Source: an uncultured Acidobacteriota bacterium (GTDB lineage Bacteria > Acidobacteriota > Vicinamibacteria > Vicinamibacterales > CAVVIG01). From it: DNA of 64,000 bases. How positions within the stretch are numbered: position 1 is the stretch's first letter; each line of letters opens with the position of its first letter. This document shows positions 2,334 to 56,833 of the stretch, piece after piece. Location: positions 165,471 through 229,470 of the forward strand of contig CAVUXJ010000007.1 in NCBI GenBank assembly GCA_963745495.1, read 5' to 3'. The position numbers and the translations under genes were made by a program. The notes beneath the pieces were generated by a model. The model did no database searches. It had not been told where the DNA came from and saw nothing but the letters and a program-made list of their open reading frames with translations.

Positions 2334-2416
2334 AGCTTTCAGCTTTCAGCTTTCAGCTGTCAGCTCTCCGAACGCTTCCACATCATCAAAGAGCTGAAAG
2401 CTGACAGCTGATAGCT
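2334..2416. repeat. AT-rich composite palindrome of CAGCT(T/G)T heptamers; probable bidirectional terminator between convergent genes
   Basis: agctttcagctttcagctttcagctgtcagctc ... gagctgaaagctgacagctgatagct. There is a perfect 19-bp stem 2348-2366/2391-2409 with a 24-nt loop. It lies between the glpD-like stop (2312) and the OMP stop (2431). Confidence 0.75.
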
Positions 2417-2430
2417 TGAGTATCGAGGAT

Positions 2431-3277
2431 CTACGGGACCTGGAACGCATTGAACACGTACGTCAACCCCGCCGTGAAGCCCATCGTCGGATCGACTGCC
2501 GTGAGGCCAAAGAACAGCCCGCCGTCCAGGCGAATCGACGCGCGCGTGTAGCGCCCGCCAAGGTTCAGAATCCCGCGGGTTTCGGTTCCCGGAAACGCCT
2601 TGCCTTCTCGCATCGAGACGCGACCGTTCAGCTCCCCGACCACTTCGGACTCGATCGGTCAGCGCACGCGCGAACGACATGCCGTAGGTCAGCACGTCGT
2701 TCTGGCGATCGCCAACCGTCGGATCAGCAAGGATGCCGAAGCCGACGTTGCCCACGACCCGGATCGACTGCACGGTTTTCGCGGCGAGCAGCGACGCGTA
2801 GAAATCCGTCGTATCGAGGCCCAGCCCCTTTTCGTTCGTCGTGTTCGGAAGCTTGGTCGCGAACCGGAACGCGAGCGAGGGGTGCTTCGGCCCCTCTGCC
2901 AGCAGCCGAATCTTCGTGCCGATGACGATGTCCTGGAAGTCGGACGTGCCTGTCCCGGTCACCGTGAGCAGGTGCGATAAGGGCGCCGGATTACGATGCT
3001 GAATCGACAGGTGATTGAAAAGCCCGCCGTCGATCTGAAGCTCTGCGATGGAGCTGATGCCCACGCTGACGCCAATCGCGGGAACGCGCCAGAGATCTCC
3101 TTCGAGACCAGACACCGGGTACTGCTGGTCGGAGGCGAAGTCCACGCCGGTTTCGAGCAGCACTCTGCCCGCGCCGATGGGTTCTGGATCTTCGGTCACG
3201 AGCGGGCGCTGTTGAGCCATCGCCGGGCGCGCGAGCATGACAGCGAATACAACAATCGGAACGACACGTCGTTTCAT
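2431..3277 (-). CDS. outer-membrane beta-barrel protein (MetA-pathway/transporter-like), one frameshift near 2640
   Basis: Signal peptide MKRRVVPIVVFAVMLARPAMAQQ with GAGGAG SD upstream of ATG 3277 (ORF 2360..3298). The C-terminal strands continue in ORF 2431..2643 (..GLFFGLTAVDPTMGFTAGLTYVFNAFQVP). Alternating beta-strand pattern. Confidence 0.65.
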
Positions 3278-3305
3278 CGACTCCTCGCGGCAGGACACAG
3301 CCTGC

Positions 3306-3764
3306 TCAGAACTGCCTCCTGCTATCCACCAACAAGGTGAAGGGGCCGTCGTTGACGAGCGACACGCGCATCATGGCCTGAAACTCGCCAGTCGCCACCT
3401 CGAGGCCGGCCGCCCTCAGATCCCGAACGACATCCTCGTACAACGGCCGGGCGACCTCTGGTGCAGCAGCCGCGTCGAACGACGGCCTCCGGCCCTTGCG
3501 GCAATCCCCCACCAACGTGAACTGCGACACCACGAGCACGGCCCCGCCGACTTCCTGAACCGACACGTTTACCCGGGGCTCCGCCGCGGCCGGATCCTCG
3601 AAGATCCGCAGTTCCCGAATCTTTCCCGCTACATATTGAACGTCCGCCGGCCCGTCTCCGCGCTCCACGCCGACGAACACCAGAAGGCCACGATCGATCT
3701 TCGCAATCGCGTGGTCGTCGACGCTCACGGCGGCCGAGGAGACGCGCTGGATGACCGCTCTCAT
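3306..3764 (-). CDS. dtd: D-aminoacyl-tRNA deacylase
   Basis: Intact 152-aa ORF MRAVIQRVSSAAVSVDD..GLLVFVGVERGD..VLVVSQFTL.GD.RKGRRPSF, the typical Dtd signature and length. Confidence 0.9.
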   Translation of the reverse strand: MRAVIQRVSSAAVSVDDHAIAKIDRGLLVFVGVERGDGPADVQYVAGKIRELRIFEDPAAAEPRVNVSVQEVGGAVLVVSQFTLVGDCRKGRRPSFDAAAAPEVARPLYEDVVRDLRAAGLEVATGEFQAMMRVSLVNDGPFTLLVDSRRQF

Positions 3765-3896
3765 TCCGGCGACGAGACCGCACCGCCGACGATCATCGCG
3801 GAAGCCGCGACGATCGCGGACCGACCATCCTGATCCGGAGTCTCACCCGCCACACTGGAGCTCGCGGAGCTCTGACGATCGCCTTGGACCGCCGAC

Positions 3897-4739
3897 TCAG
3901 CGGCCATGACCCTGATCGTGCGGGGTCGTGCGACAGCGACCGGGCGCGGGGCGAGGCTCTCCGGCGCGACGGACGAGATCCGCGGGCGGATTCAGCCTCG
4001 TGTCCAGCAGATGACGCGGGGCCACGTTGGCGAGCGCTTTGATCATCGACTGCTTCACGCCGGGATGCTCCCGCTCCAGCTCCATGAGCAGCCGTTTTGC
4101 GCGCTGGCGCTGAAGGCCCAAGTCGCCGCAGGCCGGACAGCAGCACCCGATGACCGGCAGTTCCTGTTCCTTCGTATAGGCGCGCGCTTCCTCTTCCCCG
4201 ACGAACACCAGCGGCCGGATCACCACGTGAGCGCCATCGTCGGACACCAGCTTGGCCGGCATGGCCTTCAGCGCGCCGGCGAAAAACAGATTCAACAGCA
4301 GCGTCTCGATGAAGTCGTCGGCATGATGGCCGAGAGCGATCTTGGTGGCTCCGATCTCACGCGCCACCCGGTACAGCACGCCGCGGCGCAGCCGTGCGCA
4401 CAACGAGCACGGCGTCTGATCGGCGTCAAGAATATCGTCGATGAGCTCGCCGATGTCGGTGTGCTCGATGCGGTACTCCCATCCGCGCGCCTCGCAGGTC
4501 TTCGCGATCAGATCGTGCTTGTATTCCTTGTATCCGGAATCCACGTTGACGGCCACGAGCGAGAATCGGATCGGGGCGCGCTGACGCAGGACGTCCAGTA
4601 TCTGCAGGAGCGCCCAGCTGTCCTTGCCGCCCGAGAGCCCGACCATGATCCGATCGCCGTCCTCGATCATCTGGTATTCGACGATCGCCCTGGTCGTCCG
4701 CTTCGCCAGACGGGCCTCGAGTTCGCTTCTATAGGGCAT
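3897..4739 (-). CDS. ttcA: tRNA 2-thiocytidine biosynthesis protein TtcA (PP-loop ATPase)
   Basis: Intact ORF with PP-loop GLSGGKDS, CSLCARLRRG and CCCPACG cysteine motifs, and ALGHHADD. Confidence 0.9.
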   Translation of the reverse strand: MPYRSELEARLAKRTTRAIVEYQMIEDGDRIMVGLSGGKDSWALLQILDVLRQRAPIRFSLVAVNVDSGYKEYKHDLIAKTCEARGWEYRIEHTDIGELIDDILDADQTPCSLCARLRRGVLYRVAREIGATKIALGHHADDFIETLLLNLFFAGALKAMPAKLVSDDGAHVVIRPLVFVGEEEARAYTKEQELPVIGCCCPACGDLGLQRQRAKRLLMELEREHPGVKQSMIKALANVAPRHLLDTRLNPPADLVRRAGEPRPAPGRCRTTPHDQGHGR

Positions 4740-4752
4740 GAGCGGGAATTAC

Positions 4753-4836
4753 GTAACAGTCGACAGTTGACAGTGACGTCAGTCGATCGCGCTGGACGAC
4801 GGCCTTCGACCGGTCTGTCGACTGTAACTGTCACTG
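4753..4836. repeat. composite repeat of (G/A)ACAGT words and their complement ACTGT
   Basis: aacagtcgacagttgacagtgac (4755-4777) versus ctgtcgactgtaactgtcactg (4815-4836). Possible helices 4757-4766/4815-4824 and 4771-4777/4830-4836 cross each other. It lies between the acyltransferase stop (4849) and the ttcA start (4739). Confidence 0.55.
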
Positions 4837-4848
4837 GAGCATCCACGC

Positions 4849-5736: not shown

Positions 5737-6719
5737 TCACATCCATCCATGGTCACGATACCAGTTCAGCGTGCGCTCGATGCCTTGCCGCAGGGCGACG
5801 CGCGGCTCGTAACCCAGCTCGCGGCGCGCACGCGAAATGTCGAAGGCGCGGCTCTTCGTATAGAAGTCCACGCGACGACGATAAATCGGCGGCTCGACGC
5901 CGATCGGCACCGAGAGCGCCTCGCACACCGCCCCCGCAATCCAGAACGGCCAGACGGGCAGGTAAAGCCTCGGCGGCGGCACGCCCGCAACTTCCGCGAT
6001 CAAGGCGACCAGTTGGTTCAGGGTCGTATACTCACCGCCCGCGAGAATGTAGGTGCGGCCGGCTGCGGCCGGGTGCTCGCCGCACAGGCGGAAACCCTCG
6101 ACGAGGTCGTCGATATGGGTCAGATGGTAGTAGATCTCACCGCGACCGAGAATCGGAAATCGTCTCCGAGCAACGCCTCGAAACAACTTCAGCAGCCGCC
6201 GATCGCCGGGACCGTAAATGCCGCTGGGCCGCGCAATCGTGACCTCGATGCCGAGCCGATCGCCTGTTTCGCGCGCCAGCCGTTCACCTTCAAGCTTGGA
6301 GACTTGATACGGATCACCCGGCCTGAGCGGGGCGTCTTCGCTGGCCGGCGGATGCTCGATATCCCCGTGAACGCCCGACGGTGCTGCAGTGAACCACGCG
6401 TCGCACGCCGGCGCGGGAGCTGCACGTCGACAATGTCCCGAACGGCCGACGCGTTGACCGCCTGGTAGACCTCGCGCTTGACGCCGGCCTGGCGGTAGAT
6501 CGCCGCGAGGTGATACACGACCTCGACCCCGGCGGTCGCCGCCTCGAGCGCGACGCGGTCGCGGATGTCGCCGACCGCCAATTGGATGCCCTCCGCCTCG
6601 AGGCTGCGGGCACGGCCGGCGTCGCGAACGAACGCGCGCACTGTCTGGCCCCGGGCCGCCAGGGTACGGGCCAGATGGCTTCCGGTGAATCCCGTTGCGC
6701 CGGTTACGAGCGCGTGCAC
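5737..6719 (-). CDS. NAD-dependent epimerase/dehydratase (extended SDR), 2-3 frameshifts
   Basis: GTG 6719: VHALVTGATGFTGSHLARTLAARGQ..VVYHLAAIYRQ (inside ORF 6189..8675), then RRVVHCSTVG (6314..6613), then the C-terminus ILGRGEIYYHLTHIDDLVEGF..YEPRVALRQGIERTLNWYRDHGWM (5737..6186). Confidence 0.75.
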
Positions 6720-10519: not shown

Positions 10520-12448
10520 TCACGGTGACGTGCTGACGGCCTGAAGATGCATTTGCGCGCCGAGATTGCGATCGTCATGCGAATTCGGGTCCCGCAAGCG
10601 GGGCGTAAACGCCTCCGATGATCGCGCGGAGATCAAGTACGCATAGCCGTTCAGTCCTTGAACACCCTCCCCAGCCGGCACATCGAATTCCGCTCGAGTG
10701 CCGGGTACGATCTGAACTGTCGAGGCCCCGGCGCCGGCAGAGACCGTGAACGTCGTTGTGATGGGCGACGCCGCCGTGACCTTGAAGTGATGAACCGGGA
10801 ACACCGAGCGGACGAGGATCTCGGCGCGTCCGGTTCCGGCAATCCACATGCCTTCAGGCTCCGGCGGGTACGCGTGCTGATCGAGAAAGTACAACAGCAG
10901 CCGTGGATCCCCGTACGGGATTCGCGCCCTCAGGCTTGTATCGAGCCGGATCGGAAGGTCGTTGGGCACAGTGAGCTCGACCGGCAGCCGCCGCGCCCAT
11001 CCCCGTTGGGTGGTTTCCCAGGTGAACTTCGCCGCATAAAACGGGTTGACAAGCATCTTCGCCGTGAACAGCGCGCCGCCGAGCCACGCGAGCAGACCGG
11101 GCAGAGTTGAAGCGAGCGGCGGCGTCAGAAAGAACATCGCCGGATAGACGCTCAGGAAATAGCGGTTCCCTGGCGGCCCCCCGCCGCCGAACCAGGTATA
11201 GGGCAGGAAAATCAACAGCACGAGCGCGGAGACCACGACCCCGACAAAGGTCATCACGCGCCAGACGACGGAGCGCTCGCTGGAGAACAGCCACAGCAGG
11301 ACCGCCAGGACGCCTGGAAACAGGTACGGCACCAGCCCGAAGTGGCGGCCGAACAAGAAGTAGGTGACGTTATGACGGAACAGCCTGGTGATTTCGGAAA
11401 GCTGCAAAACGTTGTCGGCGCCCACCTCGTCTGTGCCAACGCCTGAACCTCGCCGGTCCCAGCTGGCATCGGCCGCTTCGAAGGGAAATCCGGCCGTGGG
11501 GGGCGGCGCCGACCCTTGCGCCGAGTAGAAGATCTTGCGATCGCCCCCTTGATAGTTGAATTCGCCTGAGACCAGCGCGGTCGCGGCAAAGAGCGCGGCA
11601 CAGGCGGCGACGGAGACGGCCCCGACGACAAAACCGCGCAGCCATCGACGCCGCCACCAGAACAACAGCACCAGCGGCAAGACCAGCGGAGCGTTGGAGT
11701 ACGGCTTCGAGTAGGTCGCCACCCCCAGCAGGATGGCGGCCAGCACGTCGGACTCGATGCCTCGAAGCCACCGACTCCGCGGCTCGGCCACCTCCTTGTA
11801 CAGCCAGAGGAAATACGCAACGAATACGATCGAGAAGTTGAAGATCTCAGGCGTCAGGAACACGGCGTAGACGGGCACTTCAGACGCCAGGATGAACGCG
11901 AGCGTGAACGTCAGCGCGGCGGCCGGCCGCGAGCGCGCGGCGAGAAACAGGTATCCGCAGGCGCCCGCCGCGAAGAGCAACAGGATGTGGAACACGAGGA
12001 AGCCGTTCATGCCCAACAGCCACACGAACGGCGCGGACGCAACGGAATAGATGATTCCCTTCCCGAAATAGAGGCGATCCTCGCGGGGGTCGGGCGTGCT
12101 GTTGAAGATGTACAGAAACGGCGGCGTGGCGCGCACGCGGACACGGAACTGTTTGCCGTGCTTGAGGAAAATCCCTTCGGGACCCTGCTGGTAGATCCCC
12201 CAGAACCGATCCAGATCCCGGCGCTCGTACGCGAGGTCCCGATCGTAAGCCATGCTGAGGGCCATTGCGACGTACGTGGCTTCGTCGCCCTTGAGCTTGT
12301 AGCCCGCGCGCGGCACGTCAATCGAGATCGCAGCCGCCAGGGTGACGATGAGCAGAATGGCCCCGGTAAGCGCAGCCGCGCGATGGGACGGCACACTGCC
12401 CGGCGCAATGGCCGATTCGCGGGTCATCGAAGACACGCCCGACATCAT
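10520..12448 (-). CDS. GT-C-fold (PMT/ArnT-like) polytopic membrane glycosyltransferase
   Basis: Intact 642-aa ORF. It has a first-loop acidic motif KGDEATYVAMALSMAYDRDL, more than 10 predicted TM helices, then a soluble C-terminal domain. Confidence 0.7.
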   Translation of the reverse strand: MMSGVSSMTRESAIAPGSVPSHRAAALTGAILLIVTLAAAISIDVPRAGYKLKGDEATYVAMALSMAYDRDLAYERRDLDRFWGIYQQGPEGIFLKHGKQFRVRVRATPPFLYIFNSTPDPREDRLYFGKGIIYSVASAPFVWLLGMNGFLVFHILLLFAAGACGYLFLAARSRPAAALTFTLAFILASEVPVYAVFLTPEIFNFSIVFVAYFLWLYKEVAEPRSRWLRGIESDVLAAILLGVATYSKPYSNAPLVLPLVLLFWWRRRWLRGFVVGAVSVAACAALFAATALVSGEFNYQGGDRKIFYSAQGSAPPPTAGFPFEAADASWDRRGSGVGTDEVGADNVLQLSEITRLFRHNVTYFLFGRHFGLVPYLFPGVLAVLLWLFSSERSVVWRVMTFVGVVVSALVLLIFLPYTWFGGGGPPGNRYFLSVYPAMFFLTPPLASTLPGLLAWLGGALFTAKMLVNPFYAAKFTWETTQRGWARRLPVELTVPNDLPIRLDTSLRARIPYGDPRLLLYFLDQHAYPPEPEGMWIAGTGRAEILVRSVFPVHHFKVTAASPITTTFTVSAGAGASTVQIVPGTRAEFDVPAGEGVQGLNGYAYLISARSSEAFTPRLRDPNSHDDRNLGAQMHLQAVSTSP

Positions 12449-12454
12449 AGTGAG

Positions 12455-12541
12455 AATCTGGTTATCTAGTCATCTCGTTATCTGGTAATTGCATTGATTC
12501 AATTCAATAACCAGATAACCAGATAACCAGATAACTAGATT
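12455..12541. repeat. AT-rich composite palindrome of TTATCTGG/ACCAGATAA words filling a divergent intergenic region
   Basis: aatctggttatctagtcatctcgttatctggtaatt (12455-12490) pairs collinearly with aataaccagataaccagataaccagataactagatt (12506-12541), about 31/36 matches. The spacer between starts 12448(-) and 12543(+) is only 94 bp. Confidence 0.8.
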
Positions 12542-12542
12542 C

Positions 12543-13766
12543 ATGTCTTGCCGTGTAGAATCTGACGCGCTGATGTCCGCACGCACCCCGAGCGACGCTC
12601 GGATGATCGAGGAAGTGTTCTGGATCGTCCTGGGACGGCCGCCGAGCCCCATGGAGCTGCGCGACGAGACGCGCGGCGGCGAGAGAAGCGCGCTTCTGAT
12701 GCGGCTGCTCTCCTCCCCAGAGTTTCAGATGCTTCGATCGACCTGGAAGGCCGGCAGTCGTCTCGAGGGCGACGGCCACGCTCGCGAGCGCGGGCTCCAG
12801 ACGCTCGGCGCCGACGAGGCGTTCGTGCGGCGCGCGTACGACTATCTGCTCGGCCGGCCCGCGGACGATAGCGGGTTGCGCCATTACACGGCGGCGCTTG
12901 CGGCGGGAGAGACACGAACGAACCTGGTTCGCTCGCTTGCGGTGTCCGAGGAGTTCGACCGCCGCGTGCGCGATCTCGCCCCGGAAAGCGCGGTGATCCC
13001 GCGAGACACGCAGCTCTGCGAGCTCGCCAACCCCGCCAAATGGGACAACCCCGAGTGGCTCGACCTCCTGCGCAGCCTCGGACTCTCTGACGACAAGCTG
13101 TCGATGCACCGGAAGCCGTACGAATTCACACAGCTGATCTTCGGCTGCCGGCGCCTGGGGATGCTTCGTGAGGATGCCCAGATTCTCAGCGTCGGCGCCG
13201 GGCACGAGCACGTCGTGTATTGGCTGGCGAATCACGCCCGGCGGGTGATCGCGACGGATATGTACGAAGGCGTGTGGCAGGATGCGGCCGCCCGTGAAGG
13301 CGACCCGGCTGTGATCCAAAGACCTGAGGATTACGCTCCATTCCCGTACCGGCGGGACCATCTGATCTTCATGAAGATGGACGGCCGGCGGCTCGCCTTC
13401 CGTGACGGCGCGTTCGATGTGGTCTACTCGCTTTCTTCCATCGAGCACTTCGGCGGCATGCCTGGAGCCATCGACACGATCCGGGAAATGACCCGGGTGC
13501 TCAAGCCGGGCGGCGTGCTCGCGCTCGCCACCGAATACGTCCTGCACGGTCCGCCTCACGAGGACACGTTTCAGCCACACGAATTTGCGCGGCTGATCGA
13601 TCAACCATTCCTTCAGCTCGTCGAGCCGGTGGACGAGGCGGTGTACCGCCGGTACGAGTACGCGGCGATCGATCTCCACAAGAACCCCTACCAGGCGCCG
13701 CACATGGTGGTGCGCTTCGACGACACGGTCTTCACGACAGTGATGGTGTTCCTGCGGCGCCTCTAG
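12543..13766 (+). CDS. DUF4214-repeat + SAM-dependent methyltransferase fusion protein
   Basis: Intact 407-aa ORF. It has two FVRRAY.YLLGRPADDSGLRHY-type DUF4214 repeats, then VGAGHEHVVYWLA..FDVVYSLSSIEHF..LKPGGVLALATE (Methyltransf_11-like). Confidence 0.75.
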   Translation: MSCRVESDALMSARTPSDARMIEEVFWIVLGRPPSPMELRDETRGGERSALLMRLLSSPEFQMLRSTWKAGSRLEGDGHARERGLQTLGADEAFVRRAYDYLLGRPADDSGLRHYTAALAAGETRTNLVRSLAVSEEFDRRVRDLAPESAVIPRDTQLCELANPAKWDNPEWLDLLRSLGLSDDKLSMHRKPYEFTQLIFGCRRLGMLREDAQILSVGAGHEHVVYWLANHARRVIATDMYEGVWQDAAAREGDPAVIQRPEDYAPFPYRRDHLIFMKMDGRRLAFRDGAFDVVYSLSSIEHFGGMPGAIDTIREMTRVLKPGGVLALATEYVLHGPPHEDTFQPHEFARLIDQPFLQLVEPVDEAVYRRYEYAAIDLHKNPYQAPHMVVRFDDTVFTTVMVFLRRL

Positions 13767-13834
13767 CAGTACGAACGCAGGAAATGGCCGACACAGGGCG
13801 CGTGGTCCCGGAAGCCACTCGAGTTGGGCGCAAC

Positions 13835-13893
13835 CGTCAGCTCTCAGCCGTCAGCCGAGCTCTGCTGCCGAGAGCCGCGAGCTGAAAGCTACG
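13835..13893. repeat. imperfect palindrome of CAGC(T/C)(C/G)T words; probable terminator between convergent genes
   Basis: cgtcagctctcagccgtcagc ... gagctgaaagctacg. It lies between stop 13766(+) and stop 13917(-). Pairing is weaker than at the other loci. Confidence 0.45.
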
Positions 13894-23013: not shown

Positions 23014-23106
23014 GAGGTTCTAGAGGTTCTAGAGGGTGCGCGATCGTCAAACGTGTCGAACGGTTGAAACGCTCAGAGCCCCTGGAACCGATCGAACTCT
23101 AGAACC
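23014..23106. repeat. composite palindrome of GGTTCTAGA words; probable terminator of the OMP gene
   Basis: gaggttctagaggttctagaggg (23014-23036) versus cccctggaaccgatcgaactctagaacc (23080-23106). The right arm overlaps the OMP stop codon (23099-23101). Confidence 0.65.
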
Positions 23107-31698: not shown

Positions 31699-31760
31699 CA
31701 GTTCAAACACTCGCGTGGAACACGAGTCGCTCCCATGGTACTACTACGGAGCCAATCCTC

Positions 31761-31879
31761 GCAGCTCTCAGTCTCAGCTCTCGGCTATGAGCGATGAGCT
31801 GTCAGCTATCGCTGTCGGCGAAAACACGGAAGTCGCAATGTCCGAAAACCGACGGCTGAGAGCTGACAGCTGAAAGCTG
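31761..31879. repeat. composite palindrome of CAGCT(C/G/T)T words; probable terminator after the GT2 gene
   Basis: gcagctctcagtctcagctctcgg..gctgtcagctatcgctgtcgg ... ccgacggctgagagctgacagctgaaagctg. A 10-bp perfect core gctgtcagct/agctgacagc has flanking partial pairing. Confidence 0.7.
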
Positions 31880-32604: not shown

Positions 32605-32677
32605 TTCATCACGAAGTCACGAAGAACACGAAGTCTTCTCAGCAAAACCAATTTCGTGCGCTTCGTGTCTTCGTGGT
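32605..32677. repeat. composite palindrome of CACGAAG words
   Basis: tcacgaagtcacgaagaacacgaagtc (32609-32636) versus tttcgtgcgcttcgtgtcttcgtgg (32653-32676). It lies between stop 32693 and start 32576 of co-directional genes. Confidence 0.7.
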
Positions 32678-32692
32678 TCCAAGGGAGATCCG

Positions 32693-39785: not shown

Positions 39786-39866
39786 CCGCGCTGCGTCGGC
39801 CAGGTCGTCCATGCTGAAGCATCCCGCGCATGTGTCACGTTTTCGGCAGTAATAGAATGAATGTAA

Positions 39867-39936
39867 CCGCGAAGTCACGAAGAGCACGAAGAGCGTCTGG
39901 TATTAAGATCATTCGTGGTCGTCGGCTCGTGCGTGG
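39867..39936. repeat. imperfect palindrome of CACGAAG-type words in an AT-rich spacer
   Basis: ccgcgaagtcacgaagagcacgaagagcg versus cattcgtggtcgtcggctcgtgcgtgg. Pairing is only partial. It lies between co-directional genes 37785..39785 and 39973..41268. Confidence 0.4.
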
Positions 39937-39972
39937 TTAACGGGCGTTGACTGGTCCAAGGAGGAGAGAGCA

Positions 39973-42526: not shown

Positions 42527-42589
42527 GATCTGGTCATTGGGCCATCTGGTCATTGCCATCGATCGCTCAATGACTCAAATGACCAGATT
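42527..42589. repeat. composite palindrome of ATCTGGTCATTG / ATGACCAGAT words between convergent genes
   Basis: gatctggtcattgggccatctggtcattgcc versus caatgactcaaatgaccagatt. The right arm overlaps the last codons of the SGNH gene. Confidence 0.65.
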
Positions 42590-43730: not shown

Positions 43731-43785
43731 CCGGCCCCTCCCGCCCCTCTTGCCGCTCCTGCCCTTCCTGCCCTTCCGGCCTGTT
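43731..43785 (-). repeat. G-rich GGCAGGAAGGGC element, copy A (G-rich on minus strand)
   Basis: Minus strand: aacaggccggaagggcaggaagggcaggagcggcaagaggggcgggaggggccgg. It begins 6 nt after the stop of 43791..46509. Confidence 0.75.
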
Positions 43786-48176: not shown

Positions 48177-49169
48177 TCACTTGTCTGCAAGGCTCGCGGC
48201 CCGATCGAGGGCCGGCACCGATGCGTGATCCAGGATCTCGCGGATGACGTACGTCGGCTTGCCCTGCGATTCGTGGTACGTGCGCGCCTGGACTTCGGCG
48301 AGCAGTCCCAGCGTGACGAGCTGCACGCCGGTGATCAGCAGCAGCCCTCCGAAAAACAGCAGCGGCCGGTTGGCGATCGCCTGCTGGCCGGTGAGGCGCA
48401 CATAGGCGAGATACGCGGTAATCGCCGCGCCGAGGGCCCCCATCGCGAAGCCGATGAGGCCGAAGATCTGCAGCGGCCGCGTCGAATAACTGAGCATGAA
48501 CTTGACCGTCAACAGGTCCAGGATCACGCGGACGGTGCGCGAGATGCCGTACTTCGAGCTGCCGTGGCGGCGCGGTCTGTGATTCACCGGCACCTCGGCG
48601 ATCTCCACTCCCTGCTCGCTCGCGATGGCGGGAATGAACCGGTGCATCTCGCCGTACAGTTTCAGCGGCTTCACCACTTCCGCGCGAAAGACCTTGAGCG
48701 AGCACCCGTAGTCGTGCAGACGCACGCCGGTCGCCCACGAGATCAGGCGATTGGCGATGACCGACGGCACGAGCCGCGAGAAAAAGGCGTCCTTTCTGGA
48801 CTTCCTCCAGCCGCAGACGATGTCGTAGCCGCCCGCGTCGAGCGTCGCGACCATCTCGGGAATGTCACGCGGATCGTTCTGCAGATCGCCATCCGAGGTG
48901 ACGACGAGGCGGCCCGCGGCGCTGGCGAAGCCCGCGGCGAACGCCGCCGTCTGACCGAAGTTGCGCCGGAAACGGATCACGCGGAGGCGCGGATCGACCA
49001 GGTGCAGCCGCGCAAGAATCTCGAAGCTGTCATCGGTACTGCCATCGTCGATCACGATGATCTCGTACGAGCGTCCCCAGGCGTCGAGCGTGTCCGTCAA
49101 CTCGCGGTGCAGTTCGGCGAGCGAGGCCGCTTCGTTGCGGATCGGGATGACAACGCTCAGTTCGATCAT
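48177..49169 (-). CDS. GT2 polyprenyl-phosphate glycosyltransferase with C-terminal TM helices (ArnC/GtrB-like)
   Basis: Intact 330-aa ORF: LSVVIPIRNEAASL..IIVIDDGSTDDS..VVTSDGDLQNDPRDIP..two C-terminal TM helices. Confidence 0.85.
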   Translation of the reverse strand: MIELSVVIPIRNEAASLAELHRELTDTLDAWGRSYEIIVIDDGSTDDSFEILARLHLVDPRLRVIRFRRNFGQTAAFAAGFASAAGRLVVTSDGDLQNDPRDIPEMVATLDAGGYDIVCGWRKSRKDAFFSRLVPSVIANRLISWATGVRLHDYGCSLKVFRAEVVKPLKLYGEMHRFIPAIASEQGVEIAEVPVNHRPRRHGSSKYGISRTVRVILDLLTVKFMLSYSTRPLQIFGLIGFAMGALGAAITAYLAYVRLTGQQAIANRPLLFFGGLLLITGVQLVTLGLLAEVQARTYHESQGKPTYVIREILDHASVPALDRAASLADK

Positions 49170-49183
49170 CTCAGCATATGACG

Positions 49184-49279
49184 AGTCTGAGTTATCTCGC
49201 TCTCAGCTTAGTTGAGCTGGCCAATTCGAGAAATCCAATGACCAGATCAGCTGATGAGCTACATAACTCAGCTTTCAGC
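49184..49279. repeat. composite palindrome mixing CTGAGTTAT, CAGCT and ACCAGAT words
   Basis: gagtctgagttatctcgctctcagcttagttgagctgg versus ccagatcagctgatgagctacataactcagctttc. It lies between the DedA-like stop (49275) and the GT2 start (49169). Confidence 0.6.
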
Positions 49280-49884
49280 ACGTATATCGACCTTTCCTGC
49301 CCTTCGCTTTGCTCCACAGCACGTATCCGACCACGCCGGCCAGCAAGCACGCCCGCGAGGACAAGGGTGACGGTTCCTGCGTTCGCCTCCATGTAGGCCA
49401 CGGCGCGGTCGCCGTAGCGGACGGCCAGCAGCCCTTCGCCAAAGTAGCGGAGCCCGCGGCCGATCGCGATCGCAATGACGAACCGCGGCACGCTGATGCC
49501 CGCAACGCCAGCGAGCAGGACGAAAATCTTGAAGGGCGCCGGCGGCGGCAGGAGAGACGGGATCAGCACCGACATGACGCCGTAGCGCCGCACGACGGCG
49601 AGCGCCTGGTCGACGCGATCGGACGCAAACCGCTTTCTGACGAGCGCATCGCCGCCCCTGCGGCCGATGTAATACAAGATCAGACAGCCGGCGATCGACC
49701 CGAGAGTGGCGCTCGTCGCATAGAGCACCATCCGCGACTTCTGTCGCGTGACCATCAAGACCAGCAGCAGATCGTTGATTTCCGGGAGAGAGAGAAAAGA
49801 CGAATCCAGGAAGGCGACCACGAACAACCCGGGGGCTCCCATGCCAAGCGCGAACGCCTGGATCCCGTCGACGAATCTCCTCAT
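49275..49884 (-). CDS. VTT-domain (DedA/YqaA-family) membrane protein, one frameshift near 49345
   Basis: ORF 49192..49884: MRRFVDGIQAFALGMGAPGLFVVAFLDSSFLSLPEIND..IPSLLPPPAPFKIFVLLAG. The last TM helix and stop are in ORF 49275..49505 (..LLAGVVGYVLWSKAKGRK..). Confidence 0.7.
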
Positions 49885-49895: not shown

Positions 49896-51369
49896 GTGAT
49901 TATACCGTCGCGGCCGCGCGGGCTGTGTCTCGCGGTGGCCGCCGTGGCCGCGATCGGCGGCGCTCTCGTCGCGGTGCACTATCATCGCCTCGGCCTCACG
50001 CTCAGCCATTATGACGCGCGCGGGCATCTGATCGTCGCGCGGCGAATCCTCGACAGCATCACTCCGGGATGGCAGCAGATTGGCGCCGTGTGGCTGCCGC
50101 TGCCGCATCTGGTGAATGCGCTTCCGGTGCAAGTCGACGCATGGTATCGCACCGGAGCATCCGCGGTCGCCTTCTCGATCGCCGCTTTCGCCCTCACCGC
50201 CGGATCGATCGCCTGGATCGTCGTGATGCTCACGGGGTCGCGTGCCGCGGCTGTCACCGGCGCGACAGTCTTCGCGTTGAACCCGAACGTTCTCTACCTG
50301 CAGGCGACGCCGATGACCGAGCCGCTGCTTTTTGGCTTGACGACGCTCGCCGTGGCGCTGCTGCTCGAATGGCTCATCTCGAGCCGGGTCGGGACGGCCA
50401 GCGTCGGCATCGCGTTCGCCCTCGCGTGCCTCACGCGCTACGAAGCCTGGCCCGTCACGGCCATGGCGCTCACGGCAGCCGCCTGGGCAAGGTGGCGCGA
50501 GGGTGATTCCTGGCGCACGGCGATCCACCGCGTCCTGCCGATCGCGCTGTACCCGGTGGCCGCAGTGCTGGCGTTCGTCGTCTTCAGCCGGGTCGTCATC
50601 GGCGTGTGGCTCGTGCCCAGCGGATTCTTCGTGCCCGAGAATCCCGCGCTTGGCAGTCCCTGGATCGCCACGTCTCAGGTCATCTGGGGCGTGCGGATGC
50701 TCAGCGGCTACGGCGTTGATGGCGGTTGGGATCGCCGGGCTGGTCGGCCTCCTCCTCGCCGCCCTCCTCGATCGAGGGCGCGCTCATCTGCTGGTGCCGC
50801 TTGCCCTGGCGGGCACCGCCGCTGTTCCCTGGATCGCATTTGTCGACGGCCATCCCTACCGCATCAGATACCTCGTGCCGCTCGTGGTCGCTCAGGCGGT
50901 GGGCGTCGGCGCGGCCGGCGGACTCGTGAAGCGGCCCCGCCCGGCGATCCTCGGCGCGCTCCTCGTGTTGGTCGCGTACGAGCTGCGTCCCCTCGACGCG
51001 ACCGCACCGATGGTCGTCGAGGCACAGTGGGACCGGCCCAATATGGCCGTTCGGCAGCAGGTGACCGACTGTCTTCGGACGACATACAGCGGGGACACAA
51101 TCATGGCGAGCATGGGATCGCTCGGCCATTACATGCAGGAGCTGTCGCACGCCGGGTTCCGCGTGCGTGATTTTCTGCACGAAGGGAACGGGGACATCTG
51201 GCTCGCGGCGCTCACCGGGCCGCGCCCGTATGCCGGCTGGATTCTGATCGAGGAACAGGCCGAGGGCGGCGATATGCTCGCGCACATCGCGCGCGAGAAC
51301 CCGAGGTTTCTCGACGGGTTCTCGCGGGTGTGCGAAGGAGCGGGTGTTGCGCTTTACCGGCGGAACTAG
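49896..51369 (+). CDS. polytopic membrane protein, GT-C-like, one frameshift near 50715
   Basis: GTG 49896 ORF (..LSHYDARGHLIVARRILDSITPGWQQIGAVWLPLPH.., many TM helices) joined to ORF 50503..51369 (soluble C-terminal domain). The start lies only 11 bp from the divergent DedA-like start, so a later GTG is possible. Confidence 0.55.
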
Positions 51370-51372
51370 CGG

Positions 51373-51475
51373 CCACGAAAACACGAGAACAAGAAGTTAC
51401 AAGCGACTCCTACGTGTCCTTCGATCTTCGTGGTCCTTTCGTGTTTTCAGTTCTAAGTTCTCACTTTCTTAGAAC
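51373..51475. repeat. two adjacent hairpins (CACGAA(A/G) words; GTTCTAAG palindrome) between convergent genes
   Basis: A 10-bp perfect stem 51377-51386/51439-51448 (gaaaacacga/tcgtgttttc), and an 8-bp stem 51450-51457/51468-51475 (gttctaag/cttagaac) that overlaps the OMP stop codon. Confidence 0.65.
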
Positions 51476-53742: not shown

Positions 53743-53774
53743 CTCTTGATCGATTGTCAAGCGGGCTGGTGTCG

Positions 53775-53879
53775 CTTCAGCTTTCAGTGCTGACACGCTT
53801 GAAACCTGAAACCTGAAATCTGAAGTCTGAAGGTCGCCGTCGGACTGTCAGGTTTCAGGTTTCTGACTTCAGGTTTAAG
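53775..53879. repeat. AT-rich composite palindrome of GAAACCT/GAAGTCT words filling a divergent intergenic region
   Basis: cttgaaacctgaaacctgaaatctgaagtctgaagg (53798-53833) versus ctgtcaggtttcaggtttctgacttcaggtttaag (53845-53879), preceded by cagctttcagtgctgac. It ends 10 nt before the aroA start. Confidence 0.8.
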
Positions 53880-53888
53880 ATTGGAGCC

Positions 53889-55178
53889 GTGCCTCCGGTT
53901 CCCGCCGCGACCATTAGCCCCGCTCGCCGGGTGCACGGGACGCTTTGCGTCCCTGGCGACAAGTCGATCTCCCATCGGTACGCGCTCATCGCCGCGGTCG
54001 CCGAGGGTACGTCGCGTCTGACCAACTACGCGCCCGGCGCCGATTGCCAGTCGACGCTCGCCTGCCTCGGCCGGCTGGGCGTCGACATCCAGCGCGGCGA
54101 GCACGGGTCCGTCACCGTTGTCGGCCGTGGGCTGCGTGGCTGGCGTTCACCCTCCGAACCTCTCGACGCAGGCAATTCCGGTTCCACGATGAGGATGCTG
54201 GCGGGCCTGCTGGCGGCCCAGCGGTTCAGCGCTCAGATGATCGGCGATGCCTCATTGTCCCGCCGCCCGATGAGGCGTGTGATCGAGCCCTTGTCGCGGA
54301 TGGGCGCGCGGATCGAAGCGACCGGCGGCCACGCCCCGTTGACGATTCACGGATCCTCACTCCACGCCATCACGCATCGGCCGGACGTGCCGAGCGCGCA
54401 GGTGAAGAGCGCTGTTCTGCTGGCCGGCCTCTACGCGGAGGGGAACACGTCGGTCACCGAGCCCGCGCAGACACGCGACCACACCGAGCGGGCACTCGCG
54501 GCGTTCGGTGTCGACGTCAGCGCCACGGGGAACGCCATCACAGTCGCCGGCGGCCAGGGCGCCGTCGGGCAGTCCCTGGCGGTCCCTGGCGATTTCTCCT
54601 CCGCGGCGTTCTGGATGGTCGCGGCGGCCGCTCTCCCGGGATCACGCGTCGAGATCGAGGACGTCGGGCTCAATCCCACGCGAACCGGCCTCATCGACGT
54701 GCTGCGCCGCTTCGGCGCTCGTGTCGAGGTGCACGAGACGGGATCCGGGGCGGGCGAGGTGCGCGGCACGATCGTGGTGACAGGCGATCGCACCGGTGCC
54801 ATCGAGATCGCGCCGGACGAGGTCCCTGGGCTGATCGACGAGCTGCCGGCGATTGCGGCGCTCGCGGCCCATGGCGGCGAGGTGAGCGTTCGCGGCGCCG
54901 CCGAGCTGCGCGTGAAGGAAAGCGACCGGATCGCCGTCCTCGTCGCAGGCTTCCGCGCGCTCGGCATCAGTGCGGAAGAGCGGCCGGATGGCTTCGCCGT
55001 GCGAGGGCAGGGCGCGCCATCCGGCGGTATCGCCGACGCGCGGGGCGACCACCGCATGGCGATGGCATTCGCCATCGCCGCCCTGGCCGCGTGTTCGCCG
55101 TCAACCATCGAAGGGTCGGACGCTGTAGTGATTTCCTATCCTGGCTTTTTCGACATCCTCGGCCGGCTCGTTGCGTGA
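53889..55178 (+). CDS. aroA: 3-phosphoshikimate 1-carboxyvinyltransferase (EPSP synthase)
   Basis: Intact 429-aa ORF (GTG start): VPGDKSISHRYALIAAVAEG..GNSGSTMRMLAGLLA..LRVKESDRIA..DHRMAMAFAIAAL. Confidence 0.9.
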   Translation: MPPVPAATISPARRVHGTLCVPGDKSISHRYALIAAVAEGTSRLTNYAPGADCQSTLACLGRLGVDIQRGEHGSVTVVGRGLRGWRSPSEPLDAGNSGSTMRMLAGLLAAQRFSAQMIGDASLSRRPMRRVIEPLSRMGARIEATGGHAPLTIHGSSLHAITHRPDVPSAQVKSAVLLAGLYAEGNTSVTEPAQTRDHTERALAAFGVDVSATGNAITVAGGQGAVGQSLAVPGDFSSAAFWMVAAAALPGSRVEIEDVGLNPTRTGLIDVLRRFGARVEVHETGSGAGEVRGTIVVTGDRTGAIEIAPDEVPGLIDELPAIAALAAHGGEVSVRGAAELRVKESDRIAVLVAGFRALGISAEERPDGFAVRGQGAPSGGIADARGDHRMAMAFAIAALAACSPSTIEGSDAVVISYPGFFDILGRLVA

Positions 55179-55675: not shown

Positions 55676-55686
55676 CCTCCATGCTA

Positions 55687-55846
55687 GTGTCCCGAGTCAG
55701 AAATTCGGTGACATGTTTTCCGGAGCGCGGCGCCCGGATGGCAAGTCGCGACGACCGAGCATGCCGGGAGCATGCGAGGGAGGAGCAATGCCGCCAGCCG
55801 GGATGCCCCGCCCGGAAAATGTCAGCGAATTTCTGACTCGGGACAC
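55687..55846. repeat. long inverted repeat (37/35-nt arms) enclosing an 88-nt segment
   Basis: gtgtcccgagtcagaaattcggtgacatgttttccgg (55687-55723) versus ccggaaaatgtcagcgaatttctgactcgggacac (55812-55846): 34 pairs, 1 mismatch, 1 bulge. The loop carries gagggaggagcaATG (ATG 55788). Confidence 0.85.
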
Positions 55847-55848
55847 CA

Positions 55849-56005
55849 GTGTCGCGCCTCCGATGTTCGTCGTCGCACCGGGGGCGCGAAGGCGCGCGCC
55901 TCGCGAGGCGAGCGGAGAGAGAATATCAGGGGGACTTGACCGACGAGCAACGGCCCGCGGGATGCCTCGGCGGCCGACTGCACACGAACTTCGGAGACGC
56001 GACAC
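55849..56005 (+). repeat. conserved ~110-nt intergenic element, copy X, closed by a 14-bp stem
   Basis: The core 55875-55981 aligns to 59441-59550 at roughly 75-80% identity (hand alignment). The closing stem is gtgtcgcgcctccg (55849-62) / cggagacgcgacac (55992-56005), 13/14 pairs. Confidence 0.75.
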
Positions 56006-56027
56006 CAGCGTTCATGGCTTCGATCTG

Positions 56028-56771
56028 ATGCGCTACCTCATCCTGAGTGATATCCACGCAAACCTCGAGGCGCTCGAAACGGTGTTGAGCGATGCGCAGA
56101 ATCGCGGCTGCGACCGGACCCTCGTGCTCGGGGATCTGGTCGGGTACGGCGCCGACCCCAACGCCGTGATCGATCGCGTGCGCGCGCTCCCCCCCACGGT
56201 CATTGTGCGCGGCAATCACGACAAGGTGGCGTTCGGACTCGACCAGGCCGACGGGTTCAACACCGTGGCGAAGGAAGCCGCGCAGTGGATGCTCGAGGTC
56301 CTGACGCCGGAAAACCGCGCGTGGATCGCGGCGCTGCCCGCGGGGCCGTTGGCAGTCGACGACCTTATCGAAGTCTGTCATGGGGCGCCGTACGACGAGG
56401 ATGCGTACATCTTCGATGAGACGGATGCCCGCCTGGCGTTCAAGACAGCGACCAGGCCGCTGTGCCTCTTCGGGCACACCCACTACCCCGTCATCTTCGA
56501 GCTCACGAACGACAGTTGCACGAGACGCGGGCCGGCGGCCGAAGCCGAAGCTCGTCTCGAACTCATCGCGGGGGTGAAGTACCTGCTCAATCCGGGTTCG
56601 GTCGGCCAGCCGCGCGACGGTGACCCGCGGGCGGCCTATGCGATTGTCGACACCGCCGCCAGGCACGTCGAGCTGTTTCGATTGACGTATCCGCTCGAAG
56701 TCGCCCAGGCCAAAGTCATCAACGCCGGCTTGCCCGAGATTCTCGCGCGGCGTCTGGCAGCCGGACGCTGA
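56028..56771 (+). CDS. metallophosphoesterase (calcineurin-like, YfcE/MJ0936-type)
   Basis: ATG 56028 inside ORF 55509..56771: MRYLILSDIHANLEAL..LVLGDLVGYG..VRGNHD..CHGAP..FGHTHYP. Intact. Confidence 0.8.
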   Translation: MRYLILSDIHANLEALETVLSDAQNRGCDRTLVLGDLVGYGADPNAVIDRVRALPPTVIVRGNHDKVAFGLDQADGFNTVAKEAAQWMLEVLTPENRAWIAALPAGPLAVDDLIEVCHGAPYDEDAYIFDETDARLAFKTATRPLCLFGHTHYPVIFELTNDSCTRRGPAAEAEARLELIAGVKYLLNPGSVGQPRDGDPRAAYAIVDTAARHVELFRLTYPLEVAQAKVINAGLPEILARRLAAGR

Positions 56772-56780
56772 CGCGCTCGA

Positions 56781-56833
56781 AAATCTGCAACCTCAAGTCT
56801 GAAGTCTGATCAGATTGTTAGATTTCAGATTTT
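56781..56833. repeat. palindrome of (A/G)TCTGA(A) words centred on tgatca; probable bidirectional terminator
   Basis: aaatctgcaacctcaagtctgaagtctgatcagattgttagatttcagattt, between convergent stops 56771(+) and 56825(-). Confidence 0.6.

Follow-up and report, generated by a model that had tools for sequence, protein, structure and literature searches.

The 64,000-nt stretch of contig CAVUXJ010000007.1 studied here (the window) comes from an uncultured Acidobacteriota bacterium and contains 13 AT-rich palindromes, referred to as elements 1 to 13, whose arms are built from tandem 7- to 9-nt words. The host was placed in Vicinamibacterales (Acidobacteriota, subdivision 6), with a CcmF-CcmH fusion 62-75% identical to that of metagenome-assembled genomes (MAGs) of this order. 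Gene order was shared with Vicinamibacterales MAGs from ~51.4 kb to the end of the window, and the closest relatives in the genome and metagenome collections showed 74-77% protein identity. The G+C content of the 64-kb window was 61-71% throughout (~65%). Genes flanking the elements were assigned by Pfam and synteny, and the Pfam screen covered ~30 window open reading frames (ORFs). Loci taken from the collections are labelled L001 and so on; gene calls in these loci were ORF-based with a crude position-1/2 composition score, and the junction-type counts given for them are approximate and noisy. The TCAGCTN (CAGCTNT) and CACGAAG word families are abbreviated F1 and F3, respectively, in Table 1.

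Tandem-word palindromes at gene junctions

The initial annotation had described 13 loci of low G+C content, each with tandem words followed by reverse-complement words. All of its coordinates held when the sequence was analyzed with Tandem Repeats Finder and an inverted-repeat finder, and its word sets were essentially as listed. Tandem Repeats Finder detected period-7, -8, or -9 arrays at 2334/2392, 4756, 12456/12507, 13834, 23014, 31758/31855, 32609/32653, 39876, 42528, 51374, 53800/53848, and 56795/56810. The regions 12454-12542 (44-nt arms), 53794-53891, and 2334-2416 were among the longest matches of the inverted-repeat finder in the window. Each of the 13 loci folded as one long hairpin, nine of them clear and four degenerate. 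Folding z-scores were calculated against dinucleotide shuffles, and the nine clear elements (segments beginning at 12450, 32600, 31755, 53770, 2330, 56775, 23010, 49180, and 42522) ranged from -2.7 to -10.8. The degenerate four (segments beginning at 4745, 39862, 51368, and 13830) were individually weak (Table 1).

A strict detector, which called a tandem array with a tandem reverse-complement array at most 130 nt apart, found five loci in the window, compared with 0-2 (mean ~0.6) in 30 dinucleotide shuffles. No additional element of this kind appeared in a scan of all window segments with at most 50% G+C. The AT-rich palindromes are real and non-random, the count of 13 is about complete for the window, and the proposal that composite palindromes with arms of tandem words form a dispersed family is supported. 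No locus in the window reached the gathering threshold of any Rfam 15 family; relaxing the E-value brought up generic miRNA-precursor hairpin models only, with scores far below gathering.

The arms and stems of the window elements were 24-44 nt long and AT-rich, and the loops ranged from 1 to ~64 nt. The vocabulary comprised at least six word sets with periods of 7, 8, and 9, namely AGCTNTC, CACGAAG(N)N, ATCTGGTN, CTGAANN, GAGGTTCTA, and ACAGTNG. As had been suggested, the stems were able to pair in more than one register. The stem of element 1 had a 1x1 mismatch where the word varies, and the arms of element 3, 44 nt each, were 86% complementary. Element 5 had a structured interior of ~45 nt, and element 6 had an interior of ~64 nt with hairpins of its own. 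The 3' arm of element 8 was decayed. The termini and word number of element 7 matched the cross-phylum CACGAAG family described below.

Every one of the 13 elements lay in a spacer or at an ORF edge, and their junctions were convergent (five), co-directional (six), and divergent (two), in line with the three junction types reported earlier. Eleven of the 13 had one or more stop codons upstream, in several cases within 2-22 nt, and the elements at 12454 and 53774 lay between divergent starts. The convergent cases included element 4, between a methyltransferase gene (stop 13766) and a GT1 gene (-); element 9, between a DUF6152 gene (stop 42497) and a GDSL gene (-) whose ORF it overlapped at the 3' end; element 11, which began 5 nt past the stop codon at 51367-51369; and element 13, which began 7 nt past the stop codon (56769-56771) of a metallophosphoesterase gene convergent with a small conserved membrane ORF. 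Element 2 occupied a co-directional junction and ended 14 nt upstream of the start of the PP-loop ATPase gene 3897-4739(-), and elements 5 (-) and 8 (+) were also at co-directional junctions. Element 6 was 2 nt from the stop codon of the GT2 gene 31881-32576(-), element 7 separated the GT2 start (32576) from a MobA-like gene (stop 32693), and element 10 was 11-15 nt from the start of the GT2 gene 48177-49169(-). Element 3 filled the entire spacer of the divergent genes 10520-12448(-) and 12543-13766(+). Element 12, at the other divergent junction, lay immediately upstream of the TAAGAT -10 box of the EPSP-synthase-like gene 53889-55178(+), which appears leaderless.

The description of the elements as intergenic was correct for spacers and gene edges, but two ORFs run into elements 1 and 10. 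The stop codon of ORF 2360-3298(-) falls within the left (far) arm of element 1, and element 10 is overlapped by the tail of the DedA/VTT ORF 49192-49884(-), which reads through. Both ORFs cross an arm and the loop (2360-2416 and 49192-49290) and end there, and the elements supply or displace their stop codons.

None of the 13 elements was followed by a T-tract. A terminator consensus scan of the window gave 15 matches versus 9.5 expected and 10 versus 11.4 expected, none of them at any element. Terminators of the hairpin-plus-T-tract type are no more frequent in the window than chance predicts. The intrinsic (Rho-independent) terminator was rejected on the missing T-tract and on the stems, which were 24-44 nt and AT-rich rather than short and GC-rich; the initial annotation had reached the same view. 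A CRISPR array was also rejected, as the units were 7-9 nt, contiguous, and mirrored, not direct 28-37-nt repeats with spacers. Arms acting as arrays of -35-like promoter hexamers (CTGACA, TTGAAA) were rejected because their orientation was inconsistent across families and the arrays often abutted start codons. Rho rut-like and RNase E-like motifs were also considered and found no support.

Table 1. Positions, words, and folding z-scores of the 13 window elements, with the CcmF-CcmH fusion gene
Feature	Position	Strand	Words	5' arm	3' arm	z	Remarks
Element 1	2334..2416		F1: AGCTTTC x3, AGCTGTC, AGCTCTC	2334-2368	2390-2416 = GAGCTGAAAGCTGACAGCTGATAGCT	-4.4	loop ~21 nt
Element 2	4753..4837		ACAGTNG	~4756-4783	~4813-4837	-2.0	weak
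Element 3	12454..12542		8-nt words ATCTGGTT / AACCAGAT	12454-12497	12499-12542	-10.8	
Element 4	13834..13893		degenerate F1	13834-13862	13870-13893	-1.25	weak alone
Element 5	23014..23106		9-nt word GAGGTTCTA	23014-23036	~23080-23106	-3.0	
Element 6	31758..31879		F1	31758-31786	31851-31879	-5.1	
Element 7	32606..32678		F3	32606-32633 = TCATCACGAAG-T-CACGAAG-AA-CACGAAG	32652-32678, end = CTTCGTGGTT	-5.5	3 words per arm
Element 8	39865..39938		degenerate F3	39865-39891 = CGCGAAG, CACGAAG, CACGAAG	39911-39938	-1.8	weak
Element 9	42527..42588		ATCTGGTCATTG / CAATGACCAGAT			-2.7	
Element 10	49180..49283		mixed: GAGTTAT/ATAACTC, CAGCT/AGCTG, one ACCAGAT			-3.0	
Element 11	51374..51475		degenerate F3 hairpin	51374-51396	51418-51443	-1.5	weak; second small hairpin GTTCTAAG / CTTAGAAC at 51450-51475
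Element 12	53774..53891		CTGAAAC/GTTTCAG (main palindrome)	53794-53831	53854-53891	-4.8	small F1-type hairpin 53774-53797 precedes the main palindrome
Element 13	56778..56836		TCTGAAG / TCAGATT			-3.2	nearly loopless
CcmF-CcmH fusion gene	61477-63951	minus					

Word families, arm polarity, and enclosed genes

We scanned species-representative genomes with three patterns: CAGCTNT x3, CACGTNT x3 (a composition-matched control), and CACGAAG(N1-2) x3. Each pattern occurred at at least 120 genome loci. Among the matches listed, those of CAGCTNT were mainly in Acidobacteriota, those of CACGTNT mainly in Chloroflexota and Bacteroidota, and those of CACGAAG in Proteobacteria, Acidobacteriota, Planctomycetota, Verrucomicrobiota, and others. 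The CAGCTNT and CACGAAG patterns were also present in IMG/VR viral contigs at at least 120 loci each, some contigs carrying 5-6 copies, and the sampled loci held more than 100 different words. These results indicate that tandem heptamer arrays are ubiquitous and that their vocabularies are lineage-specific.

The order of the two arms was strictly polar, in a direction specific to each family. Of the partners of CAGCTNT arrays, 45 were downstream and 4 upstream, giving (CAGCTNT)n..(ANAGCTG)n, and of those of CACGTNT arrays, 41 were upstream and 1 downstream, giving (ACGTGAN)n..(NTCACGT)n; reversed-sequence controls for both counts gave 0. Similarly, (CACGAAG)3 preceded (CTTCGTG)3 in 24 versus 1 cases in genomes and in 18 versus 0 in viral contigs, and this excess extended to a spacing of ~400 nt and was gone beyond it. 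All window loci of these families obeyed the same polarity, namely the three clear TCAGCTN loci (2334, 13834, and 31758) and the three CACGAAG loci.

Several simple causes of this polarity were rejected. Stop codons in all three frames (TGA or TAA in each word at a period of 7 or 8) marked no consistent arm: in the window, the stop-rich arm was the 3' arm in five elements, the 5' arm in three, and neither in four, and the AGCT and ACGT families were opposite in this respect. Purine/pyrimidine, G-versus-C, and A-versus-T rules for arm order were not valid across 15 families, and a nearly identical GGGATT word ran in opposite polarities in L003 and L033. A universal CTGA core was also rejected; CTGA occurred in ~25% of unbiased words versus ~5% expected, which is far from universal.

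The arms were ~30 nt long regardless of word length. TCAGCTN arms contained 4-5 word copies, and 144 of 161 CACGAAG arrays had exactly three words and a TTCAC outer flank, so that the elements ended in TTCAC/GTGAA. In AGCTNTC words, the N position took all four bases (A255, G182, C171, T154), and the other 6 of 7 positions were conserved. Adjacent TCAGCTN words had the same base at the free position in 274 of 625 cases versus 163 expected. Among 84 cases of mirrored between-word spacers in the CACGAAG family, 81 agreed in length (52 expected) and 31 were fully complementary (8.8 expected), the latter value being reached in 0 of 2000 shuffles. Identical spacer "alleles" (G, AA and TT, C) were found in the unrelated hosts L408, L436, and L474.

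Some CACGAAG elements contained genes. A long element in L403 held a gene for a GxxExxY protein (TIGR04256, E 2e-42). A profile search of the sampled sequence (6.8 Mb) found three GxxExxY genes, and all three lay exactly between CACGAAG arms, the (CACGAAG)3 arm abutting the start codon and the (CTTCGTG)3 arm following the stop codon. This polarity was identical to that of the ORF-less elements, indicating that the GxxExxY gene is inside the element. Homologues of the GxxExxY and four-helix-bundle genes on plasmids were found by tblastn. This independent sample agreed with the first: three of four plasmid GxxExxY genes had three-word arms of the CACAGAG or CGCGAAG type adjoining the gene. In Bacteroides finegoldii, arms were present on both sides (ttCAC-CACAGAGGA-CGCAGAGGA-CACGGAGGA ... 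ORF ... CTCTGTGAC-CTCTGTGTC-CTCTGTG-GTGaa), and among the plasmid GxxExxY cases it was this one that had the TTCAC...GTGAA termini. Bernardetia had CACAGAG words on both sides, and in Sphingomonas, where the gene lies between fabD and fabG, (CGCGAAG)3 abutted the ATG on the upstream side only. The GxxExxY gene of Gemmatirosa was directly followed by a complete hairpin of (CGCAGAGGA)3 words without an ORF. The window elements at 32606, 39865, and 51374 shared words, word number, and polarity with the GxxExxY arms in L403, L461, L484, and L764, and the CACGAAG family was the only one in which arms matched those of ORF-bearing cassettes. None of the 13 window elements enclosed an ORF and no GxxExxY homologue was found in the window; the window elements were therefore filed as ORF-less relatives rather than cassettes proper. 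No GxxExxY relative was confirmed in viral contigs.

A similar arrangement was found for four-helix-bundle (S23p) genes. In L507, detected by a scan for small ORFs flanked by periodic inverted arms, a four-helix-bundle gene (TIGR02436, E 2.5e-32) lay between (ATTACGA)n arms. Of eight plasmid four-helix-bundle genes, seven had inverted tandem-heptamer arrays on both sides. These seven came from Euhalothece, Bernardetia, two Nostoc, Treponema, Gloeocapsa, and Planktothrix (cyanobacteria, Bacteroidota, and Spirochaetota), and in some of them the arms touched the start and stop codons. We found no published link between heptamer arrays and either gene family in the literature.

On the plasmid records L761, L763, L764, and L771, the GxxExxY or four-helix-bundle genes interrupted co-directional pairs of housekeeping or defence genes (radA and a FAD protein gene, ade and manC, fabD and fabG, and DUF1156 and Swt1-HEPN). 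In several of these cases, the 5' arm words were Shine-Dalgarno-like (GAGGA, GAAGG, GGAGG), and the 3' arm was anti-Shine-Dalgarno-like.

Other arrays were noted in the sampled loci. In the high-GC phage-like contigs L576, L546, L710, L655, L659, and L673/L744, spacers consisted nearly entirely of concatenated tandem words (CACGAAG, AACGGCA, GGCAGAA, CCGCTNT, AGCTGAN). Arrays of the scanned word reached 5-6 per 12-14 kb, and a word palindrome set apart each of the tail and head genes. In a Geothrix alkalitolerans isolate (L088, 4200-4330), a TCAGCTN palindrome lay in the spacer from a stop codon to the gltX start, and its loop contained a canonical GC hairpin with a T-tract terminator (GGGCGCCGATGGCGCCCGCTGTTTTGT); word arms and a classical terminator therefore coexist there. 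In an Acidobacteriaceae MAG (L102, 6735-7100), a TCAGCTN/NAGCTGA pair of the usual polarity surrounded ~330 nt of the 23S-5S rRNA spacer, a position in the rRNA operon that is, by analogy, like that of an rRNA intervening sequence (IVS). A widespread repeat (CTGTCATYCTGAGCGYAGCGAAGRATC...) stood beside or nested in word palindromes at L106 (~6270-6300) and in the interiors of L283 and L284 (Acidobacteriota and Chloroflexota).

Turnover at orthologous spacers and relation to known repeats

The same design with other words was present in the relatives L003, L005, L012, L013, L015, and L033, in non-orthologous and sometimes in orthologous spacers. Words in other Vicinamibacterales loci included TCGGGAC, AACTCCC, AGAAGTG, AATCCCA, and GGGCAAA, and the design was also found outside the order, in Kofleriaceae (L021) and Caldilineales (L056). 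Vicinamibacterales loci contained 21 period-7 arrays in 412 kb (12 of them paired), a higher density than the 11 in 1087 kb of the other-phylum loci fetched with the same gene.

Orthologous spacers gave an ambiguous answer to whether the symmetry is kept in relatives, a check that the initial annotation had proposed. At the junctions of elements 11 and 13, L005 and L015 had a word-hairpin with different words, L010 and L011 an unpaired array, L009 and L039 a plain GC hairpin, and others nothing. At the junction of element 12, an element was found in the window and L003 only, out of ~37 orthologous spacers (~35 without it). In L001, L009, and L039, the flanks of this site (...CTGKCG and TAAGAT...) were contiguous, so element 12 looks like an insertion. 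The pattern agrees with insertion and turnover more than with a conserved site.

The EPSP-synthase-like gene next to element 12 (53889-55178) appears leaderless order-wide (window 53860-53895; spacers L001-L039 and L201-L233), with a -10-like TAAGAT or TATAGT box 6-7 nt ahead of the start codon in nearly all orthologues. This box stands back-to-back with the TTGACA box of the divergent HATPase_c_2 gene, and element 12 parts them in the window. Long unpaired arrays were also seen in relatives: CCCTAAG/CCCCAAG heptamers at the contig start of L013 (1-110), and TTGGCCTC x10 after an AGCTATC x4 array in L010 (8730-8900). Assemblies may tend to break at such arrays.

The initial annotation had known of no described repeat class with this architecture, and two reports contradict that statement. 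Rehm et al. 2015 (PMC4692102) counted 186 and 183 arrays of the GGGAATC (GGGANTN) heptamer in two genomes of Xanthomonas, most often with four units. Of these arrays, 89-93% were intergenic at an average of 28 nt from an ORF, and in 70-75 cases per genome two opposite-strand arrays formed an inverted repeat (PMC4692102). The arrays were mostly transcribed, were under-represented at divergent junctions, and changed in length and sequence between close species, and no function was found (PMC4692102). They resemble the window elements in being tandem heptamers with conserved and variable positions that are intergenic, near ORF ends, and arranged in inverted pairs; L003, from the same order as the window, carries GGGATTC words like those of Xanthomonas. 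However, that study picked one G-rich word for its quadruplex potential, whereas the window has at least six word sets that are mostly unable to form a quadruplex, and it drew no connection to enclosed genes or IVSs. Aklujkar et al. 2009 (PMC2700814) described three classes of paired opposite-strand sites with 3-5 tandem 7-9-nt repeats in Geobacter metallireducens, namely GTTGCTYN x4, TCTCCGTS[Y] x3, and MTYCTGA x5 (4x8, 3x9, and 5x7), with arms of 27-35 nt. The partners were at variable distance, and there were dozens of copies and several classes per genome (PMC2700814). These sites appeared only in supplementary figures and were read as IHF/HU global-regulator sites without a test (PMC2700814). 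Insertion sequence (IS) elements lay at a fixed distance from the paired Geobacter sites (PMC2700814), which was not seen in the window. The window elements share with this inverted-paired tandem-array class the 7-9-nt unit, the nearby reverse-complement array, and the intergenic or ORF-end position. Since the architecture is in the Xanthomonas and Geobacter literature, it is not a new repeat class. The polarity, the ~30-nt arms, and the family structure across phyla and viruses are new, and the link to GxxExxY/S23p cassettes, and hence to rRNA IVSs, appears new.

IVSs offer a parallel for an enclosed gene. The Coxiella 23S rRNA IVS is a 428-444-nt selfish element with an S23p ORF (Warrier et al. 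2016, PMC4990558), and its 28-bp terminal-inverted-repeat stem is cut mid-stem by RNase III (PMC4990558). The same processing is cited there for Salmonella, Leptospira, and alpha-proteobacteria, and IVSs are regarded as horizontally acquired (PMC4990558). Like the window elements, whose arms are 24-44 nt, IVSs have a ~28-bp terminal stem around a variable interior, but they lie in rRNA helices 25 and 45, whereas the window elements are ORF-less and lie between protein genes.

Repetitive extragenic palindromic (REP) sequences occur singly and in strictly alternating pairs, as stated in a passage of PMC2817692. Passages on REP, BIME, and REPIN sequences describe high-copy, lineage-specific intergenic palindromes by gene ends, which fold into long hairpins when paired, with proposed roles in mRNA stability or termination. 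A REP unit is a short hairpin with a GTAG/CGTC tag, whereas a window arm is an iterated non-palindromic word. No consistent tag was seen by eye; GTAG occurred at few ends, for example in CGTAGCT at 2331-2334. No RAYT or other transposase was found among the ~30 screened window ORFs. The elements did not qualify as MITEs (miniature inverted-repeat transposable elements): arms resembling terminal inverted repeats were present, but element 12 had no target-site duplication and the interiors were unrelated. Heptamers are the commonest long simple sequence repeat (SSR) unit in bacteria, according to papers citing Mrazek 2007. The TAACTGA repeats of Beggiatoaceae and the cyanobacterial STRR sequences are direct heptamer arrays, with one inverted case among 170 repeat sets in BOGUAY (MacGregor 2015, PMC4679880). 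They resemble the window elements as tandem heptamers in spacers that often end a few nt before a start codon and are patchy across phyla, and in L081 AACTGAN arrays stand beside an AGCTGAN array, like the TAACTGA type. STRR and TAACTGA repeats were described as direct repeats, and pairing and polarity were not analyzed there. The omega-repressor heptads (parS, pSM19035) and the metboxes of MetJ are runs of adjoining 7-8-bp units, both direct and inverted, that each take one protein dimer, and Drosophila Foldback elements have internally tandem-repetitive terminal inverted repeats around a variable interior. These systems are analogies of design and do not imply membership.

A second class of repeats, long hairpins without tandem words, was found in the window at 55684-56005 and 59416-59575. 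Its arms at 55684-55717 and 55816-55849 were 34 nt and 91% complementary, a second hairpin was formed by 55849-55870 and 55984-56005, and the 355-nt spacer had a minimum free energy of -199 kcal/mol. Part of this repeat was 77% identical to window positions 59442-59551 and 83% identical to the Acidobacteriota locus L462. The flanking genes were contiguous in L004, L005, and L009, so this repeat looks like an inserted MITE-like element. In addition, period-9 and period-18 tandem repeats occurred in apparent coding sequence at 43734-43781 and 60817-60874 (GCCCCTCCT x5.3 and CTTCCTGCCCTCCTGCC x3.5); they are probably Pro/Gly-rich peptide repeats unrelated to the palindromes.

Interpretation and alternatives

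We favor the reading that the 13 loci are ORF-less, IVS-like hairpin shells, probably RNA-processing or 3'-end sites and not classic terminators, and we give it about an even chance of being correct. A shell is a pair of mirror-image arms of ~26-40 nt, in which a 7-9-nt word, conserved in its core and free at 1-2 positions, is repeated 3-5 times head to tail. In other bacteria, such shells hold small, selfish-looking genes, GxxExxY (PD-(D/E)XK nuclease-like) or four-helix-bundle/S23p, and the arm polarity is best explained by descent from such ORF-bearing cassettes. If transcribed, the arms would pair into an imperfect ~30-bp stem. By likeness to IVSs, RNase III would cut such a stem, and processing or 3'-end formation there would make the insertion tolerable. 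The window elements may thus be derived from cassettes, and they may be mobile now or may have been so in the past. It is the most economical account, in which the ~30-nt arms, the conserved words and termini, the polarity passed on from ORF-bearing ancestors, and the variable interiors would all be expected of ORF-less shells of the cassette class. This reading also fits the occurrence at all junction types and at gene edges, the gain and loss at orthologous spacers, and the phage-like contigs.

A number of observations weigh against this interpretation. No ORF-bearing cassette with TCAGCTN words, the commonest family of the window, was found, and the TCAGCTN arrays in phage contigs separate genes instead of enclosing them. 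The specificity of the array-bracketed genes is weakly controlled, as the plasmid survey covered only the GxxExxY and four-helix-bundle genes. RNase III cleavage has been shown for rRNA IVSs only. About half of the arrays had no detectable partner within 160 nt and would be unable to form a stem, and both arms of the two elements at divergent junctions may not share a transcript. The mirrored N positions of the TCAGCTN family were complementary in 14 of 75 cases versus 15.7 in shuffles, with no excess; the stem accordingly carries 1x1 mismatches at regular intervals, as element 1 shows when folded. At co-directional junctions, sense and antisense pairing were even (19:15 and 18:17), and spacer G.U pairs were not in excess of A.C pairs in the sense view (11 versus 8). 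Sense-strand pairing was thus no better than antisense, and there was no signature of selection on one RNA strand. Interiors ranged from 8 to 410 nt and were mutually unrelated, even among copies of one genome, and element 12, for which the empty site is known, showed no direct target-site duplication. The completely different loops and the lack of a target-site duplication exclude classical copy-and-paste of elements as wholes.

A wider version of the shell reading would unite word palindromes, heptamer SSR pairs like those of Xanthomonas and Geobacter, GxxExxY and four-helix-bundle brackets, and 23S IVSs in one so far unrecognized superfamily of mobile hairpin cassettes, spread through bacteria and phages, whose words are bound by the cargo protein, the 13 window copies being non-autonomous. 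We regard this version as doubtful. The recognizing cargo may then be the PD-(D/E)XK GxxExxY nuclease or an Avd-like four-helix bundle, and the core with 1-2 free nt per word could reflect reiterative, partly untemplated arm synthesis rather than ordinary slippage.

The position of 11 elements after a stop codon, and the short distance of several of them from it, suits bidirectional terminators or protective hairpins at mRNA 3' ends that lack a U-tract, were selected in situ, and had their arms lengthened by slippage. The number of T-tract terminators in the window, which is no more than expected by chance, the strong folding z-scores, and the plain GC hairpins of L009 and L039, which stand where the window and L005 have word-hairpins, point in the same direction. 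So do the Xanthomonas arrays, mostly transcribed and fewer at divergent junctions (PMC4692102), and, according to the papers citing Mrazek 2007, the prevalence of heptamers among long bacterial SSRs. Nevertheless, we consider this explanation unlikely. It leaves unexplained the word cores shared across phyla, the polarity of each family, the three-word arms with TTCAC/GTGAA, the interiors of up to ~400 nt, and the enclosed genes, and the sense strand has no pairing advantage. Moreover, elements lie at divergent junctions, some fill spacers within apparent operons, where termination would be harmful, and paired elements in the sampled loci were not clearly depleted at divergent junctions (6 of 53, 7 of 45, and 4 of 24, with noisy gene calls). 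In these loci, arrays pressed against gene boundaries at starts as well as at stops, in agreement with the Xanthomonas report. The arms could instead be arrays of double-stranded DNA sites with one word per protein subunit, of the ribbon-helix-helix omega/MetJ type or for IHF/HU, acting as operators, insulators, or nucleoid sites. A conserved core with a free N that is not complementary between arms is consistent with this idea, as are the strict mirror polarity, the ~30-bp arms whatever the word length, and the presence of several families per genome, and the 7-8-bp register matches that of omega/MetJ-type sites. Binding by a global regulator was also suggested for Geobacter (Aklujkar 2009, PMC2700814). 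We nonetheless judge it improbable: no binding protein was identifiable here, and with more than 100 different words the model needs very many cognate proteins. In addition, the mirrored CACGAAG spacers co-vary, indicating that the arms pair or copy each other, and an operator model does not predict enclosed small genes.

Non-autonomous DNA of the REP/REPIN, MITE, or foldback kind, which a transposase-type enzyme would mobilize in trans via a hairpin of single-stranded DNA and with no RNA role, overlaps heavily with the shell reading and differs from it mainly in denying the RNA-level role. Insertion polymorphism with intact flanks, multiple copies per genome, strict polarity, 30-nt termini conserved across phyla and viral contigs, and spacer alleles shared by unrelated hosts would all be compatible with it, and the pairing constraint is symmetric on both strands. 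The IS elements at a fixed distance from the Geobacter sites (PMC2700814) and the single or strictly alternating REPs of the cited passage (PMC2817692) can be read in the same way. Yet the missing target-site duplication, the unconserved interior, the arms that are not themselves palindromic, the lack of a consistent GTAG/CGTC tag by eye, and the lack of a transposase or RAYT among the screened window ORFs make a pure version of it quite improbable. Neutral origin by slippage and template switching in AT-rich spacers, with neither function nor specific propagation, would account for the likeness of adjacent words at the free position, for copy number and presence that differ between species, and for the fact that every heptamer tried was found in tandem at at least 120 loci. 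Six conserved word positions next to one free position, the fixed three-word CACGAAG arm, a polarity of 24:1 to 45:4, and the specific association with two small-gene families contradict it, and we find this origin very improbable and strongly disfavored.

The elements take a large share of the window's spacers and have counterparts in many phyla and in viral contigs, which two earlier reports had left unexplained. For annotation, they cause false ORF extension, supply stop codons (elements 1 and 10), and can split promoters (element 12), and masking them is advised. The link of the ORF-less shells to cassettes opens to test the role of abundant heptamer repeats, the role of two large "hypothetical" small-protein families, and how transcripts end or are cut in genomes without classical terminators.

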